Shown: one piece after another, positions 3,469-34,155 of the stretch | Position numbering within the stretch: position 1 is the first letter of the stretch | How the letters are laid out: each line of letters begins with the position of its first letter | Source: Candidatus Omnitrophota bacterium | GTDB taxonomy: Bacteria > Omnitrophota > Gorgyraeia > Gygaellales > Profunditerraquicolaceae | DNA: 64,000 nt | Direction: 5' to 3' | Assembly: GCA_025453445.1 (NCBI GenBank) | Contig: JALOQJ010000006.1 | Span: forward strand, 2,308 to 66,307 | Notes under the pieces: model-generated | The model's input: the letters and a program-made list of their open reading frames with translations, nothing else | The model's database searches: none | Told to the model about the DNA's origin: nothing | Made by a program: the position numbers and the translations under genes

Positions 3469-3482
3469 TCTAAAAAACTGTT

Positions 3483-3612
3483 AAATCCCAAATTACAATA
3501 CACAAATCACAAACAATACTACAATCACAATACCAAAGTTTAATTTTTCGTTTGGAATTTTGGTAATTTGGTATTGGGATTTGTTTGTAATTTGGAATTT
3601 GTGATTTGGGAT
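3483..3612. repeat. ~130-bp imperfect AT-rich palindrome (caaat/atttg repeat family, copy B) between convergent genes; likely bidirectional terminator or MITE-like element
   Basis: Left arm aaatcccaaattacaatacacaaatcacaaacaa vs right arm ttgtttgtaatttggaatttgtgatttgggattt; inner arms caataccaaag/tttggtattg around centre tttaatttttcg. Confidence 0.75.
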
Positions 3613-6600
3613 TTAGTCTAGATATATGTCTATTCTTTTTATGAGGCGTGACCTTATTTGTTCAGCGTAAGGCGAAGGTATGGTGTCCGAGTGTATTTCT
3701 ACTGACAAGCCATTTTTGTCAGCGAATAAGATTTTCTTGGGAGAAACTTTATTTTTCCCAAAGGTATTACATATTTTTGGGTTATGGTATATTACCTGTA
3801 CTTTACTTAAGAAGTTAAAGCTATAGGTTTTATCTTTTTTCGTAAAGAGCCAACCAACAAGCTGAGGATTGAATTTCAGATTAAGCTGATTGTGATTGTT
3901 TAGGAAAAATGGCTGCCTGCCAAGGTTCATTATCAGCCAAATCTGTAGGAATTCAGCAGTAGATCCGGAAAGCCGCGCTACAAAACCGTTGCCATGCAGA
4001 TTTTTATCCGGGAAAGCACTGCTTGTGATAAATGAAGAATTTTCCAGTACGCTGCGGCCGTATACTGTGGGCTTTAATAAAGGGATAAGTACATTTTTAA
4101 AATCTGAGTAAAATTCTTCCGAAAGCCCATGTTTTAAAATTTCCAGTATATATTTATATTCCATATGTAGCCAAATGGATTCGTTTTCCAGCCAGCCGGG
4201 GGTAAATACTTTGCACCTGCCAATTTCTTCGGGCATATCCTTTAAAGAAGCCGTTACTTTATACATCTTTAACTTTTTATCGTAAAGCGGGCTGCTTTTT
4301 ACTGCCTGATAAAGATTTTTAGCTTCAATAGCATTATTGCTTAAACGCAGAGCATGCATTTGTGATTCCAAAAAGAAGGGGATTTTTACTTGCGAAAATT
4401 TTGTCGGCCGGATATAACGGTTATCCAGCGGATCGTATTCTGTAACAGTATTAATAAAATACGCGTAATACATGCCTTCTTTTTTGTTAAATGCTTTAGC
4501 CAGGCCGAAGTCGATTTTAGCCTGCGCCTTATTCAAGAATTCGATTAATTCTCCAGCAGAAACTTCTATTTCTTTCCCGGAAAAGCCCAATAAGGTATCT
4601 TTACGAAAAGCTTCTTTTAAGGCAGTGGCTTTATCCCAATAAATATAGTCTTTGTCCGGAGAATTACTGTCAGTATGTTCCTGAATTATGCCTTTAAGGG
4701 TAGTTAGGAAGCCGCAGATTTCCTTAGTTAAAGATATTTTATCAATGGCAGTTTTTTCTAAGGCAGTTTTGATAGTAATAAGCAGCCTTTTTAATTCAAA
4801 AGTTTCGCACGTAGAAGAGCCGAAAAGAGCAGGCAGGCCGTTTAAGGCATCATACCAGTTGGGTTTATTGGCTTCCATTTCAATACCCACCCCAAAAGGA
4901 TCGAGTGAGGCGAGCTTATTTACAGCCAGGCAAAATAATTTATTCACAAGATTAGTCTGGTAAATTTCTCCTTCGCCGCAGCCAGACCGCATTTTATTGG
5001 GGAAGTGAATCCGTTTTTTAATCAGGTCTTTTTTATGTGCATCTAAAGTAACTGAATTTAACTGGCGGGGTAAGCCGTTATAGAGGGTATATTTTTCGTT
5101 TCTTGGGCGGACAACTTCGCCATTATCAAAATAGGTAAATACTTTTTTGTTAAAGAAAAGTTCTTTTAACTTCTCCGGGTATATAGATAGGTAATTTTCC
5201 AGTAAATCAAGGTTGTATGCCCAGTGGTCAGTCCAGAAGCCTTCGCCATGTTCAGCCTGCTGGATTTTAAGGCACAAGGGAATTAACAAATTAAGAAAAT
5301 CATCGTAAGGAATGTTTAGTTCAAGGTTATTTTTCTGAATAAAAAGGATTAAATTACCGGGTGTAAAAGGCCTCTTCAGGTAAGTGCTAAGTTTTTCAAT
5401 GGTTGTTGAGTCCATAAGGCCTTTTAAAAATGAATTTAGTTTAACCGTATTATCCAAAGCAAAGCTGACGCCTTTAATTACCAGGGGATTAAAACCGTCT
5501 GTTTGCAGAAGATTAAAGAAAGTAATGATATTTTCGTCTTCAATTTCAGGGTTAAACCAGACATCCATACGGCGGTTCTGATTTACATCGCGGTAATTGC
5601 CGTTTCCCTGAGAAAAATACGATGGTTGTATCTGGAATCTGTTATAGTCTCTTTCCAGGTCGCCGTGTTTTCTAGAGTAAATATAAAGAACCGACTTTTT
5701 TCCACCAGATTCAAATACTATAGGATAGCCGCCGCGTATAATATTATCAAGATAAGTCTGGCGGGTGTAGAGGTTGAATTCTTGAGAGCCGGTTTGCGTA
5801 TCAATATCATCTTGCAGCCCGTTAATAATTAATTTATTAGCCGTTCTTTTTTTGGCCAAATATCCGGATTTAATAATTTTAGGAACGAGCCTATTTAGTG
5901 TTGCTTCATTATGCATATAGCCGGAGAGGGAGTAGAAAATTTTTTCTTCTCCCGGTTTAAGCTGGAAATTAGCAGCCATGAATCCGCAGGGGGTTTTATT
6001 ATCGGTAAGTTCATTTTTTGCAGCGATAAAATTATTTTCACTAATAAATTCATAAGGACAGGAAAAGTCAGTTACCGGGCCAAAGATAGATTGAGGACTA
6101 ACAATAGGCTTTATGATCTTTGGAACTTTTTTTTCATAATGGAAAGCCAGATAAAAGTTACCTTCATCAAGATGGATCACTTCAGGCTTATCAGCAGGAT
6201 CTACGGCTAATTTATAAAAAGGAACATTTTGTTTAAGGTTGTTTACGGTCATCCATGCTTCCAGTGTCCGGCTGAGCTCTTTAAGCAGCCAATGATTCAT
6301 TCCAAAAGGAACAATTTGCGGGAGCCCGTCAAGAAACTGTATTTTTTTTGCTGTTTTAGCGGTATTTTTTACGCTGATTATTCTTACTAATGCGGCATAA
6401 GAATCATCGGGAACGGTGAAATATTCAACATTGATTTTAAGCCCAAGTGTAGCATTAGTTTCTTCAAGCTTTAAATCATACGATGAAATCTTCATTTGGT
6501 TGCTAAGTTTAAAGCCTAAATTCACAAAGCCGTTATGGAATGGTTCGTAGAATATATTTTTTTTACTTCCCGAAGAGACTTTAATAAAAGTGCGGAAACC

Positions 6601-15664: not shown

Positions 15665-16990
15665 ATGGCGCTTTCAGGTTTAGACATCTATAAGTTATTA
15701 CCAAAAACTAACTGCCGCGAGTGCGGCTTTGTTACTTGCCTTGCTTTTGCAATGCAGCTGGCAAAGAAAGCAGTAAGTATTGATAAATGCCCTTATTTAA
15801 GCCCGGATGCAAAGAAAACGCTTGAGACTTCCGGACAGCCGCCAATTAAGTTGGTTACGATAGGATCTGGCGAGGAGAAATTAGCAGTAGGTAATGAAAC
15901 AGTCCTTTTTCGCCATGAAGAGAAATTCCATAATCCATGCGGCATAGGCTCTATTCTTAATGATAATTTAAGTGAAAACGAAATAAAAAAACAACTGGAT
16001 ATAATCAATAAACTGAAATTTGAGCGCATCGGACAAGCCTTAGAGGTAAATCTTGTAGCAATTAAACAAAATTCTACCGCGGAAAATTTTCTTAAAGCAG
16101 TTGCGTGTGTTATGAATAATACGCGCTTAGGTTTGGTATTAATGACTGCTGAACCAAAGGCATTAAAAGAAGCCTTAAAAATTACTAAAGACAGACGGCC
16201 TCTTATTTATAGCCTAAGTGGTGATTACACAGAAGTTGCTCAATTAGCAAAAGAATTTAATGCGCCGCTTGTGGCAATAGCGCAAAATTTGGAAGCACTT
16301 TCTAGTTTAACGCAGGATTTAAACAAGCAGGGTGTTTCGGAAATAGTTTTAGATACAGGCATTAAGCCTATAAAAGACAAGATTTGGGATCTGACGCAGA
16401 TACGCAGGCTGGCGCTGAAGAAATCAAACCGCAGCTTAGGATATCCTATGCTAGTAGTGGTCGATAAAAATGATCCTGTTGAGGAGGCAATGGAGGCAGC
16501 CAGCTATGTTGCTAAATATGCCGGAATTATTTTGTTAAAAAATGTAAACACCGCAGAGGCCTTGTCATTATTAACCCTAAGGCAGAATATCTATACTGAT
16601 CCGCAGAAACCGCTGCAGATAGAGCCCAAGCTTTACCCAATAGGTAATGCTGATAAAAATTCGCCTCTTTTAGTTACTACAAATTTTTCGCTTACATATT
16701 ACACGGTATTGGGAGAAGTTGAAGCAAGTAAAATACCTTCTTATATTTTAAGCGTAGATACTGAGGGAATGTCAGTCTTAACTGCTTGGGCAGCGGAAAA
16801 GTTCACTCCGGAAAAAATCAATGATTCAATTAATAAATCCGGAGCAAAAGAGGCAGTGGCGCATAAAAAAATTATTATTCCGGGCTATGTGGCTGTAATG
16901 AGTGGTGATTTAGAAGAAGCTTCGGGGCTGCAGGTAATTGTCGGCCCTAAAGAAGCAGCAGGATTACCAGCGTTCTTGAAAAATTTGTAA
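15665..16990 (+). CDS. acsC: corrinoid iron-sulfur protein large subunit (acetyl-CoA decarbonylase/synthase gamma subunit)
   Basis: N-terminal [4Fe-4S] motif CRECGFVTCLAFAMQLA...KCP; ~441 aa; next to acsD/acsE. Confidence 0.85.
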   Translation: MALSGLDIYKLLPKTNCRECGFVTCLAFAMQLAKKAVSIDKCPYLSPDAKKTLETSGQPPIKLVTIGSGEEKLAVGNETVLFRHEEKFHNPCGIGSILNDNLSENEIKKQLDIINKLKFERIGQALEVNLVAIKQNSTAENFLKAVACVMNNTRLGLVLMTAEPKALKEALKITKDRRPLIYSLSGDYTEVAQLAKEFNAPLVAIAQNLEALSSLTQDLNKQGVSEIVLDTGIKPIKDKIWDLTQIRRLALKKSNRSLGYPMLVVVDKNDPVEEAMEAASYVAKYAGIILLKNVNTAEALSLLTLRQNIYTDPQKPLQIEPKLYPIGNADKNSPLLVTTNFSLTYYTVLGEVEASKIPSYILSVDTEGMSVLTAWAAEKFTPEKINDSINKSGAKEAVAHKKIIIPGYVAVMSGDLEEASGLQVIVGPKEAAGLPAFLKNL

Positions 16991-17031
16991 AATAGATAGT
17001 TTCGCGTGTGTCTTGTTTGTATTTTTGCGGG

Positions 17032-17322
17032 AACGTTTGCCCCGCCCCAGCGTGGCGGGGCTGCACTTCGTTCCAGCCCCTCGCTCTCCCGCAGCCGGGC
17101 CGTGGATAAAAGCGTTTTTCAATTAAGGAGCCGGCTGCGGGAACCGTGCCCGCTCGGGGGCTTCCAAGATCCCGCAAAAACACAGCCAAGCCCCACGCTT
17201 TGAAAGTTAAAGATACTTTTAAGTAGTTATATTTTAGCGGGTGGCTGACGAGACGAAGACCTTGCCGCCCGCAGCGAATAGCGAGGACGGCGAGGTGGAT
17301 CGGCAGACAGGACCCGCTAAAA
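17032..17322 (+). ncRNA. GC-rich (~60% GC) highly structured non-coding element with two tandem stem-loop domains; candidate structured RNA/leader of unknown class
   Basis: Domain 1 closed by tttttgcggga(17032-42)/tcccgcaaaaa(17170-80), containing gccccgcc-ccagcgt-ggcggggc and cccgcagccgg/ccggctgcggg stems; domain 2 closed by ttttagcgggt(17232-42)/acccgctaaaa(17312-22); no credible ORF. Confidence 0.5.
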
Positions 17323-17364
17323 ATTCAATAATATAAAGTTACATTTTATCCGGATAATAAGACT

Positions 17365-19197
17365 GTGGAGGTCGCCAAAGACACGACGATTTTGAATGCG
17401 GCTATTTCTGCAGGAGTCTATATTAAGTCTGCCTGCGGCGGGGATGGGGTATGCGGGCAATGTAAGGTCATTTTAAAAAAAGGAAAGGTTGCGGTTCAGC
17501 CGGCTGGCAGGTTGAGCCCGGAAGAAAAACAAGCAGGAATTCACTTGGCTTGCTTAAGTGAAGTGCATGGAGATTTGGAAGTAGAGATTCCCCCAGAATC
17601 AAAATTGGATTTTGAAAAACTTACTACAGATGCTTATTCAGCAGCAGAAGAAATCGAACCTCCGGCATCAATAATAAAAGAAGGGATTTTTAAACACTCA
17701 CCCCTGGCAACTAAAATTTACCTGGAGCTACCTCAGCCAAACCTTAATGATAAAATTAGTGATTTAGAAAGGCTTTACCGGCAGCTTGCAAAAATAAAAG
17801 TACCGATTTCGCAGATAAGTTTAAGCAATATTAAACGGCTGGGAGAATTACTGCGCGATTCAGACTGGAAAGTAACTGCTACTTTAGCAAAGAAGGATGG
17901 CGTTACGGAAATCGTCCATCTTGAATCAGCTGATACCTCAGGAAAAAATTTCGGGATGTGCTTTGATATCGGCACAACTACAATTTCCGCGCAATTAGTA
18001 GATTTAAATTCAAAACATACTTTAGGCGCAAAAGCCGCTTATAATAAACAGGCTAGTTTTGGCAGCGATGTGATTACGCGGATTATTTATGCCCGGGAAA
18101 AAGACGGATTGGAAAAATTACACAATGCTGTAGCTGAAGAAATGAACAGAATGATCCAGGAATTAATTAAAGAACATAATATTGATTTAAATGACGTAAA
18201 TTGCGTTGTCTGCGCCGGCAATACAACGATGATACAGCTGCTTTTAGAAATAGACCCCAGCTATATCAGAAAAGAGCCCTATGTACCTACTGCTAACTTT
18301 TTACCGGTAATCCGCGCCTCAGAAGTAGAAATAAATATTAACCCCCGCGGCCTGCTTTTCTGCGTTCCGGGAGTTTCCAGCTACGTTGGGGGCGATGTCA
18401 GCGCCGGGGTTTTATCATGCGGGCTAAACAAAGCTAAAAATTTAAGCCTCTTGATTGATATAGGCACAAACGGTGAAATAGTTTTAGGCAATAAGGACTT
18501 TTTAGTGGCATCTGCTGCTTCAGCAGGCCCGGCATTTGAGGGTTCAGGCTTAAGCTGCGGTATGCGCGCATCAGCAGGAGCAATAGAAAAAGTTAAAATT
18601 AATCCGAAAAACTTCTCCGTTGAATATAAAACAATTGGCAGTGCCCGCGCCCGCGGCATCTGCGGCTCAGGCTACATCGATATTATTTCAGAAATGCTGC
18701 GCACGGGATTGATAGATAAGCTTGGCAGGATGAAATCCGGATACAACAAAGAATTCATTATTGTTAAAAAAGAAGAGGCGGATTCTTCAGCTGATATTAT
18801 TATCAGCGAAGCGGATATCGAAAATATTAAACGCGCCAAAGCAGCGATTTATTCGGCAGCATCAGCGTTAATTCGGCATATGGGTTTCGATTTTAAAGAT
18901 CTTAAAAAAATATTTATTGCCGGCGGGTTTGGTACTTCTATTGATATAGAAAAGGCAATTACCATAGGGCTTTTGCCGGGATTAAATAAATCACGTTTTG
19001 TTTTTGTCGGTAATAGCTCGCTTGCCGGAGCCCGGCAGATACTTTTATCAGAAGAAGCAATGGAAAAAGCTGAAAAAATCGCCAAAAAAATTACTTATTT
19101 GGAATTATCAGTGGAGCCATCATATATGGACGAATATATGGCAGCTTTATTTTTTCCGCATACTGATTTAAACAGGTTTCCTTCAATTAGGCATTAA
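17365..19197 (+). CDS. corrinoid activation/regeneration protein (RACo-like): N-terminal [2Fe-2S] ferredoxin domain + ASKHA-type ATPase domain
   Basis: CGGDGVCGQCKV 2Fe-2S motif; ~600 aa; position in acs cluster. Annotated GTG start at 17365, but an upstream in-frame KVTFYPDNKT (17335-17364) suggests a different real start. Confidence 0.8.
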   Translation: MEVAKDTTILNAAISAGVYIKSACGGDGVCGQCKVILKKGKVAVQPAGRLSPEEKQAGIHLACLSEVHGDLEVEIPPESKLDFEKLTTDAYSAAEEIEPPASIIKEGIFKHSPLATKIYLELPQPNLNDKISDLERLYRQLAKIKVPISQISLSNIKRLGELLRDSDWKVTATLAKKDGVTEIVHLESADTSGKNFGMCFDIGTTTISAQLVDLNSKHTLGAKAAYNKQASFGSDVITRIIYAREKDGLEKLHNAVAEEMNRMIQELIKEHNIDLNDVNCVVCAGNTTMIQLLLEIDPSYIRKEPYVPTANFLPVIRASEVEININPRGLLFCVPGVSSYVGGDVSAGVLSCGLNKAKNLSLLIDIGTNGEIVLGNKDFLVASAASAGPAFEGSGLSCGMRASAGAIEKVKINPKNFSVEYKTIGSARARGICGSGYIDIISEMLRTGLIDKLGRMKSGYNKEFIIVKKEEADSSADIIISEADIENIKRAKAAIYSAASALIRHMGFDFKDLKKIFIAGGFGTSIDIEKAITIGLLPGLNKSRFVFVGNSSLAGARQILLSEEAMEKAEKIAKKITYLELSVEPSYMDEYMAALFFPHTDLNRFPSIRH

Positions 19198-32957: not shown

Positions 32958-33947
32958 ATGAACATTTCTATAATAGGCGACGGAGGATGGGGTACTACCT
33001 TAGCGATACTTTTGTCAAAAAAAGGCTATCCAGTTACGCTTTGGGGCGCGTTTAAAGAATACACGGACTACCTGAATAAAAAAAGAGTGAATTCAAAATT
33101 CCTGCCCGGAATAAAAATTCCCGCAGGGATTAACATTACACACGACTTAAATGAAGCGCTGCGTGATAAAGAATTAATTGTTCTGGCTGTACCATCGCAA
33201 TATTTACGTAAGGTGATCCGGGAATTTAAAAAAACCGGCTATCCTAAAAAAAGTATTTACTTGAGCGTTACCAAAGGAATCGAGATAAGCACTCTTAAAA
33301 GAATTTCAGAAATAATCAAAGAAGAATTGGGTCCGGTAAAAACAGCTGTTCTTTCAGGGCCGACAATTGCCCATGAGGTGGCTGCGGGCAAACCGACTAC
33401 CGCTGTTATCGCTTCAAAGAATGCAGTTGTCAGAAAACGCTTGCAGGATATTTTTATCACTAAGAGATTCAGGATTTACACTAATGATGATGTAATTGGA
33501 GTGGAATTAGGGGGCAGCTTGAAGAATGTAATTGCCATAGCCTGCGGAATTTCAGACGGCCTGGGTTTTGGAGCAAACACAAAAGCAGCATTGCTTTCCC
33601 GCGGCCTGGCAGAAATTTCCCGGCTGGGCATGAAGATGGGAGCTAAAACTTCGACATTCAGCGGCATCAGCGGCTTAGGAGACCTTGTAACTACCTGCAT
33701 CAGTCAATATAGCCGCAATAGGTTTGTTGGAGAACAGATCGGTAAAGGCAGGAAGTTGAGTGAAATTAAATCCCATATGCAGATGGTTGCCGAAGGAGTG
33801 CCGACAACGCAGTCTGCATATCAGCTAAGCCTGCGTTACAAAGTAAGCATGCCGATTACAAAAGAAATATACGCTGTTCTTTATAAAAATAAATCCGCGC
33901 AACAGGCAGTTAAGGATTTAATGACTAGAAAAAAGAAAGAGGAATAA
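32958..33947 (+). CDS. gpsA: NAD(P)H-dependent glycerol-3-phosphate dehydrogenase
   Basis: ISIIGDGGWGTTLA Rossmann N-terminus and GpsA-specific central motifs; 329 aa. Confidence 0.9.
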   Translation: MNISIIGDGGWGTTLAILLSKKGYPVTLWGAFKEYTDYLNKKRVNSKFLPGIKIPAGINITHDLNEALRDKELIVLAVPSQYLRKVIREFKKTGYPKKSIYLSVTKGIEISTLKRISEIIKEELGPVKTAVLSGPTIAHEVAAGKPTTAVIASKNAVVRKRLQDIFITKRFRIYTNDDVIGVELGGSLKNVIAIACGISDGLGFGANTKAALLSRGLAEISRLGMKMGAKTSTFSGISGLGDLVTTCISQYSRNRFVGEQIGKGRKLSEIKSHMQMVAEGVPTTQSAYQLSLRYKVSMPITKEIYAVLYKNKSAQQAVKDLMTRKKKEE

Positions 33948-34045
33948 AAATATTGAGATGCATGCGGGGGCGTGCCCCGTTGCATCTCCACAACTAAAAA
34001 TATTGAGATGCATGCGGGGGCGTGCCCCGTTGCATCTCCACAATG
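33946..34045 (+). repeat. perfect tandem duplication of a 50-bp unit (2 copies, differing only in the last 2 nt), each containing a strong 8+5-bp hairpin; starts at gpsA stop, ends 3 nt before tRNA-Pro
   Basis: aaaaatattgagatgcatgcgggggcgtgccccgttgcatctccacaa x2; hairpin gagatgca-tgc-ggggg-cgtg-ccccg-t-tgcatctc. Confidence 0.85.
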
Positions 34046-34048
34046 CAA

Positions 34049-34123
34049 CGGGGCGTGGCTCAGTTTGGCTAGAGCGCTTGAATGGGGTTCAAGAGGCCGA
34101 CAGTTCAAGTCTGTCCGCCCCGA
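34049..34123 (+). tRNA. tRNA-Pro (anticodon GGG), no encoded CCA
   Basis: Acceptor cggggcg/cgccccg, D arm gctc..gagc, anticodon stem cttga/tcaag with loop atGGGgt, T arm gacag-ttcaagt-ctgtc. Confidence 0.8.
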
Positions 34124-34155
34124 CTTTTTAAAGCAGATAAAAGGAGGGTGAAGAA

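Follow-up and report, generated by a model that had tools for sequence, protein, structure and literature searches.

Dispersed intergenic repeats that fold into hairpins are known from bacteria, and D1, the larger of the two elements described below, is closest in behavior to the ERIC/IRU sequences, with a looser resemblance to REP/BIME clusters and to the MITEs of bacteria. The ERIC/IRU sequences of Enterobacteriaceae are imperfect palindromes of ~127 bp that lie in transcribed intergenic regions, often inside operons and in either orientation. They are non-coding, occur in size variants that arise through internal insertions and deletions, show no obvious transposase or target duplication, and are predicted to act, if at all, through hairpins in the mRNA. 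The REPs are 20-40 bp long and consist of an 8-9-bp stem with a 4-5-nt loop and a terminal tetranucleotide tag; these extragenic, GC-rich, multi-copy sequences stabilize upstream mRNA segments and insert without target duplication (Di Nocera et al., 2013, PMC3733652).

The window analyzed here, a stretch of 64,000 nucleotides from a Candidatus Omnitrophota bacterium, encodes part of an acs (Wood-Ljungdahl) gene cluster on its forward strand, to which all coordinates below refer. The spacer between acsC, a gene of the corrinoid iron-sulfur protein large subunit type (15665-16990), and the RACo-type reductive activator gene (17365-19197, GTG being the first canonical start) comprises positions 16991-17364. 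The preliminary description had located a structured element between acsC and a RACo-like gene, and the Pfam domain sets of the two flanking genes bear this placement out (CdhD, 6e-101, and FeS, 3.6e-13, upstream; Fer2, RACo_linker, Raco_middle and RACo_C_ter downstream). Open reading frames of 65 and 80 amino acids overlap the element in a mechanical list of such frames; in the JGI annotation of the identical contig (L001), the spacer is free of called genes. Most probably, the spacer stretch consists of two non-coding palindromic repeat elements, here denoted D1 (17004-17198, ~195 nt) and D2 (17232-17322, ~90 nt), which represent separate families of hairpin repeats dispersed in the genomes of Omnitrophota.

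The 5′ end of the RACo gene (17323-17364) appears damaged when compared to L001, where a segment of 15 nt (AAATGACTATGGAAA) that includes the RACo ATG is present but is missing from the window between 17329 and 17330; apart from this gap, the two sequences are identical in this region. The codons at 17332-17364, upstream of the listed GTG and in frame with the RACo open reading frame, encode the conserved first strand of the ferredoxin domain (YKVTFYPDNKT); they are preceded by TAA, and there is no start codon. The loss either is genuine, in which case RACo is truncated or silenced in this strain, or results from a consensus error beside the repeat.

D1 and D2 are two very stable hairpin domains. 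The element is GC-rich as previously described, with a GC content of 0.588 over 17032-17322 (0.626 in D1 and 0.615 in D2), but the background is higher than the ~37% that had been assumed, the mean of the window being 0.407. The two domains are separated by an AT-rich segment (17199-17231; GC 0.18). The four stem pairs quoted in the preliminary description are all present. These are the core of the D1 outer arms (TTTTTGCGGGA, 17022-17032, and TCCCGCAAAAA, 17170-17180), two inner stems of D1 (GCCCCGCC, 17039-46, with GGCGGGGC, 17054-61; and CCCGCAGCCGG with CCGGCTGCGGG, inside 17087-17142), and the closing stem of D2 (TTTTAGCGGGT, 17232-17242, and ACCCGCTAAAA, 17312-17322). The outer arms extend beyond these cores to 29 nt with 83% complementarity in D1 (17004-17032 and 17170-17198) and to 28 nt with 75% complementarity in D2 (17215-42 and 17312-39). 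The near-identical closing stems of the two proposed tandem domains belong to different repeat families and do not reflect a tandem duplication of one domain. Folding greatly exceeds chance expectation: the predicted folding energy of the entire gap is -150.2 kcal/mol (z -6.6), with -94.8 kcal/mol (z -4.5) for D1 and -47.3 (z -6.75) for D2, and the minus strand of the gap folds equally well (-154.5 kcal/mol, z -6.6).

Dispersed copies of D1 were identified by scanning a metagenome collection with a strict pattern of the D1 5′ arm that matches the window and the spacers of two relatives (L003 and L039). The pattern matched 49 metagenome contigs, of which about 48 carry a full-length D1 (~155-200 nt, with the matching 3′ arm) between flanks that are mutually unrelated. 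A covariance model (R1) built from 34 of the copies finds ~52 sense-strand copies in the pattern-matched loci, several contigs holding two or three within 6-9 kb. The window itself contains a full-length copy that matches model positions 1-164 with 134 bits (E 2.5e-31), compared to only 26 bits for the antisense strand; the conserved sequence of its subfamily probably begins a few bases earlier, with GTTTC at 16999-17003. The closest relatives of this copy (94.9% identity in L090 and 94.4% in L123) both reside at unrelated loci; one of these two copies precedes ribF and the other follows an M48 peptidase gene. More generally, the neighbors of D1 are housekeeping genes, such as those for heptosyltransferases, a PP-loop ATPase, MgsA, PEBP and RibF; additional copies are found between argF and argG, after argH, and next to an M48 peptidase gene beside a MazE/PIN pair. 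The alternative of a selfish, GC-rich palindromic insertion, which the preliminary description had also entertained, is supported by these dispersed copies in unrelated contexts.

Nearly all copies for which two neighbors are known (29 of 31) are located between co-directional genes, and their orientation relative to these neighbors is unbiased (17 sense and 12 antisense; binomial p 0.46). Clustering of all flank open reading frames, combined with Pfam searches, revealed no transposase, RAYT or reverse transcriptase and no recurrent partner gene. The apparent top cluster was rejected as a partner because it comprises tgt together with spurious frames read through the repeat. The tgt gene is a neighbor of D1 at five loci, one of which (L121) duplicates another (L083). 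At the four distinct loci (L083, L084, L131 and L089), D1 lies upstream of tgt on the opposite strand, directly abutting it in the first three and at a distance of ~670 nt in L089. Since L083, L084 and L131 carry different D1 subtypes, tgt is a second recurrent site besides the acsC-RACo junction.

No second copy of D1 was detected in the 64-kb window, either by BLAST with short words or by cmsearch with R1, so that for the source genome the copy number is an extrapolation from related metagenome contigs. TTTTNGCGGG also occurs at three other positions in the window (29686, 41670 and 63753), none of which is a hairpin element. The window also contains, at 3482-3615, an intergenic AT-rich imperfect palindrome unrelated to D1 and D2 (arms of ~35-48 nt, 71-83% complementary), and, at 33945-34043, a perfect tandem duplication of 50 nt that immediately precedes a gene for tRNA-Pro(GGG) (34049-34124). 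This tRNA gene was found by ARAGORN and is unlisted in the Rfam scan at gathering thresholds. Each 50-nt copy forms a hairpin and holds GGGGCGTG, the first bases of this tRNA gene. Many metagenome contigs begin or end inside D1 or within ~200 nt of it (L002, L097, L098, L105, L113, L125, L127 and L128), as would be expected if the repeat interrupts short-read assemblies.

D2 (nhmmer profile match E 4e-18) represents a second dispersed family with conserved termini (GCGGGTG and CAGGACCCGC) and a variable interior. At least 9 copies were found, with the additional ones in L123 (two), L109, L099, L110, L025, L095 and L104. In L123, D2 is located downstream of D1, in the same order as in the window, and before ribF; both elements are near-identical to those of the window, but neither the interval that separates them nor the sequence on either outer side is related. 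D1 is also accompanied by two further recurrent modules, namely a long hairpin that starts with ATATTTTGCCGAGG..AAGCGTGCATTAGAAATTTTTCGGCAA..GTGTGCGAGGATTTACGAC and a second module that starts with TAAATGAATCTGACGGGTTTTCGAGCGAAT. They are found just 3′ of D1 in ten loci (L102, L104, L105, L115, L116, L118, L125, L126, L129 and L130) and also in L108, L109, L122 and L123, and together with D2 form mosaic clusters reminiscent of BIMEs.

The state of the same junction in other Omnitrophota indicates how the spacer came to be filled. A search with the RACo protein yielded 80 loci, nearly all of them in MAGs labelled Omnitrophota, with 54-70% identity, which places the window in this phylum; the species representatives retrieved in this way include no close relative of the organism represented by the window. 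Among the 73 loci with both acsC and RACo, the median length of the spacer is 27 nt, and in 41 (56%) the spacer does not exceed 60 nt (8-60 nt, mostly 8-33). A tight junction thus prevails and is probably ancestral (~10-30 nt), which implies that D1 and D2 are insertions. The corresponding spacer holds a homologue of D1 in L003 (nhmmer E 1.8e-5; 137 bits with R1), L052 (96 bits) and, in a short form, L039 (67 bits), and a short antisense copy in L020. In L129, the acsC stop codon is followed by another hairpin module, a full-length antisense D1 (135 bits) and the RACo start. The longer spacers are filled by several unrelated hairpin repeats, for example, of the GGGACGTCTTTG... and GGGGACAC... 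types. GC-rich hairpin repeats of other kinds (GGGACGTCTTTG..., GGGGACACTTT... and GGGACNGTCCC types), at times as arrays of two or three, are present in the spacers of L004, L007, L011, L015, L019, L036, L037, L048, L058 and L062.

Strongly folding inserts, which represent several unrelated repeat families, were found in 22 of the 73 acsC-RACo spacers but in only 9 of 362 other co-directional gaps (Fisher p 3e-12), a ~12-fold enrichment within the same loci that is based on crude ORF calls. This enrichment hints at a permissive or useful site for intercistronic hairpins; it could reflect selection for a hairpin or, equally, the presence of the sole insertion-tolerant junction in a tightly packed cluster. 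Within the 80 genome loci, D1 matches are confined to the acsC-RACo spacer, and this restriction could result from long vertical retention instead of repeated insertion.

The comparison with known repeat classes can now be made in more specific terms. The characteristic features of generic dispersed palindromic intergenic repeats are all found here, namely many copies in unrelated contexts, hairpins on both strands, and extragenic, non-coding placement. Like ERIC, D1 is a long imperfect palindrome (in the ~100-200-nt class) that is located in an intergenic region of an operon, occurs in both orientations and in size variants, and shows no obvious transposase or target duplication; unlike ERIC, it is GC-rich within an AT-rich genome, has a branched interior with covarying sub-hairpins and resides in Omnitrophota. 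With the REP/BIME/REPIN group, D1 and D2 share the nature of extragenic, GC-rich, multi-copy hairpins, with different units side by side between co-directional genes. In its dimensions D1 is, in contrast, unlike a REP, being 155-200 nt long; its stem spans ~23-29 bp and its interior is branched. The start of most D1 copies, GCGTC, resembles the CGTC tag of REPs (D1 positions 2-5); this is the only likeness to the tagged class, and membership of D1 among CGTC-tagged REPs or REPINs was rejected on the grounds of size and architecture. No gene for a RAYT (Y1 transposase) was found among the examined open reading frames in the flanks of the D1 copies.

The resemblance to MITEs (Correia/NEMIS, RUP, Nezha) includes the size range, the non-coding character, the dispersed and operon-internal location, and the terminal inverted repeats, which in D1 are the ~29-nt arms (83% complementary) conserved across the family. 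D1 differs from MITEs in that its interior is conserved and covarying rather than freely drifting. In addition, no target-site duplication was detected at the ~48 D1 insertion flanks, which are only AT-rich. The scan for exact 5′-arm matches revealed no insertion sequence whose ends would mark it as a parent element; a matching 3′ arm lies within 300 nt in almost all of the 49 pattern matches, and no transposase is enclosed. This combination fits single-strand transposition with hairpin recognition (REP/RAYT, IS200/IS605) better than cut-and-paste MITEs. Integron attC sites, retrons, group II intron fragments, omega/bridge-RNA and small ribozymes were also considered and rejected, there being no motif, partner gene or Rfam match for any of them. 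Literature searches for Omnitrophota repeats retrieved no description of D1 or D2.

The D1 family shows a conserved architecture that goes beyond the outer palindrome. The outer stem, P1, is formed by the two 29-nt arms (5′ strand, 17004-17032; 3′ strand, 17170-17198), and its pairs hold throughout the 34 copies. It encloses a hairpin, P2 (17039-17061), with perfect 8-nt arms containing GCCCCGC/GCGGGGC and a conserved loop CCCAGCGTG, and a long optional hairpin, an expanded form of P3 (17087-17142), with perfect 12-nt arms and an AT-rich loop. According to the alignment, the expanded P3 is limited to some subfamilies (L085, L090, L099, L122 and L123) and is absent in L003 and most other copies. 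When a hand-drawn structure consisting of P1, 7 bp of P2 and the base of the variable P3 was scored on the 34 copies, 91.8% of the cells were paired, vs 32-49% when the partner column was slid. Changes on both sides are observed at 17 pairs, and all seven pairs of P2 and all four of P3 covary; the stems thus covary, and the formation of the D1 hairpin is maintained by compensatory changes. This covariation does not demonstrate an RNA function because the stems of palindromic repeats also covary between subfamilies. The default RNAalifold consensus and a majority vote over minimum free energy structures yielded no more than the outer stem and P3, given that the internal folds vary among the copies.

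These features bear on a rival explanation, namely, that D1 is a multi-copy, polar, functional module of structured RNA or single-stranded DNA, which might serve as a guide RNA, as a scaffold RNA or in recognition by an unknown mobile system, and in which the hairpin palindrome is only a part of a more specific fold. The polarity of D1 is pronounced, with a sense-strand score that exceeds the antisense score by more than 100 bits, and two unpaired blocks (TCGCTCT and TGCCCGCTC), as well as the P2 loop, are invariant in all subfamilies. In addition, a CGCTC-like motif occurs five times in the D1 alignment, on one strand only, the hairpins expand in a modular fashion, and a C(UUCG)G tetraloop is present in some copies; the complete covariation of P2 and P3 points in the same direction. 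The polarity and the invariant unpaired blocks are not explained by a plain palindrome; the blocks could be protein-binding sites on DNA or parts of a specific single-strand fold. However, conserved blocks of this kind are equally expected for sites bound by a transposase or a host protein, and the diversity of internal folds, the mutually unrelated flanks, the random orientation with respect to host transcription and the failure to find a recurrent partner gene all count against a dedicated RNA, as does the lack of a conserved promoter or terminator. The wobble asymmetry test also gave no functional strand, with no enrichment of G.T (G.U) over A.C cells (22 vs 39). A functional module of this kind is therefore considered improbable. 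A somewhat broader proposal, still unlikely in our assessment, builds on the invariant unpaired motifs, the fully covarying sub-hairpins and the modular expansions: D1 would be more than a palindrome, namely a conserved, polar and structured module, of RNA or of single-stranded DNA, that belongs to a mobile or regulatory system as yet undescribed; separately or in addition, the acsC-RACo junction would repeatedly have recruited unrelated hairpin repeats under selection for the AcsC:activator ratio.

Far less credence can be given to a cis-regulatory leader or riboswitch, sensing, for example, corrinoids or folate and controlling RACo and the downstream acs genes. Such a role appeared attractive in the preliminary description, given that the element lies just upstream of RACo within a corrinoid-dependent operon and folds strongly, and the covariation of its stems across homologues would be compatible with it. 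In structure, GC richness and location upstream of a corrinoid or folate gene, the D1-D2 pair is indeed similar to cobalamin and THF riboswitches, but it differs from them in matching no model, in not being locus-specific, in its independence of orientation and in being missing from most orthologous spacers. No Rfam family, including the cobalamin and THF riboswitches, reaches even E 10 on the element within 16700-17700, where a permissive cmscan gave only a chance snoRNA match (E 1.4) outside of it. A scan of the whole window at gathering thresholds reported four tRNAs only, and nine loci of the family searched against Rfam yielded no match on D1 or D2. Genuine riboswitches in these genomes are detectable by the same scan, as shown by an FMN riboswitch (L122, 1533-1676; 116 bits) that is located ~800 nt downstream of a D1 copy and is unrelated to the repeat.

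Furthermore, the spacers of at most 60 nt in 56% of the relatives have no room for an aptamer, and the copies that are 94-95% identical to the D1 of the window adjoin ribF or an M48 peptidase gene, neither of which is linked to corrinoids; a cofactor-sensing role is therefore not supported. Nor was an expression platform detected, there being no terminator-like or RBS-sequestering feature. A consensus scan of 16800-17500 found no intrinsic terminator and three weak promoter-like matches of no diagnostic value, and because T-runs lie 5′ and A-runs 3′ of the GC stems in both domains, neither strand reads as a terminator. The absence of an orientation bias across the family extends to the junction itself, where D1 is antisense in L129 (full-length) and L020 (short), and the case of L129 is decisive against the riboswitch idea. 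Conservation and covariation in related genomes had been suggested as a check on the leader interpretation; both were observed, but across dispersed repeat copies rather than orthologous leaders, and hence do not discriminate between a leader and a repeat. Taken together, these observations render a riboswitch or other cis-regulatory leader of the operon highly improbable. Finally, an artefact of assembly or a foreign fragment of recent origin, which the GC content 20 points above the surrounding sequence might suggest and the preliminary description had allowed for, can practically be dismissed, given that the independent JGI contig L001 carries the element unchanged, that a Logan contig of the same organism (L002) terminates after the first 44 nt of D1, as is usual for assemblies at repeats, that homologous elements fill the acsC-RACo spacer of other Omnitrophota and the D1 family is widespread in Omnitrophota metagenome contigs, and that the scanned viral contigs contain no match to the D1 pattern.

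Under the preferred interpretation of the spacer as a pair of dispersed palindromic repeats, D1 and D2 would have spread as non-autonomous mobile DNA; no pair of empty and filled sites was found in close relatives. Once inserted, the two elements would be co-transcribed with the acs operon, and, irrespective of orientation, their stable hairpins would form a structure in the mRNA between the two cistrons that blocks 3′ exonucleases or offers a site to a double-strand-specific RNase, and that uncouples the translation of RACo from that of acsC. The outcome, by analogy with REP/BIME and ERIC in enterobacterial operons, would be that less of the catalytic activator is made in proportion to the abundant structural subunit. 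It is conceivable, although less likely than not, that D1 and D2 exert a selected effect on the expression of the operon instead of being tolerated passengers.

The identification of these repeats removes a tempting false lead, in that a GC-rich structured element within a corrinoid operon does not represent a novel riboswitch for a cofactor. It also defines at least two repeat families, found in neither Rfam nor the searchable literature and apparently undescribed, in Omnitrophota, a poorly studied group that is known almost only from metagenomes and in which such repeats break assemblies and mimic regulatory RNAs. A single Wood-Ljungdahl junction that is recurrently filled by unrelated hairpin repeats constitutes a small, testable case, which could show whether mobile palindromes are tolerated at this site or have been co-opted to tune the stoichiometry of the operon.
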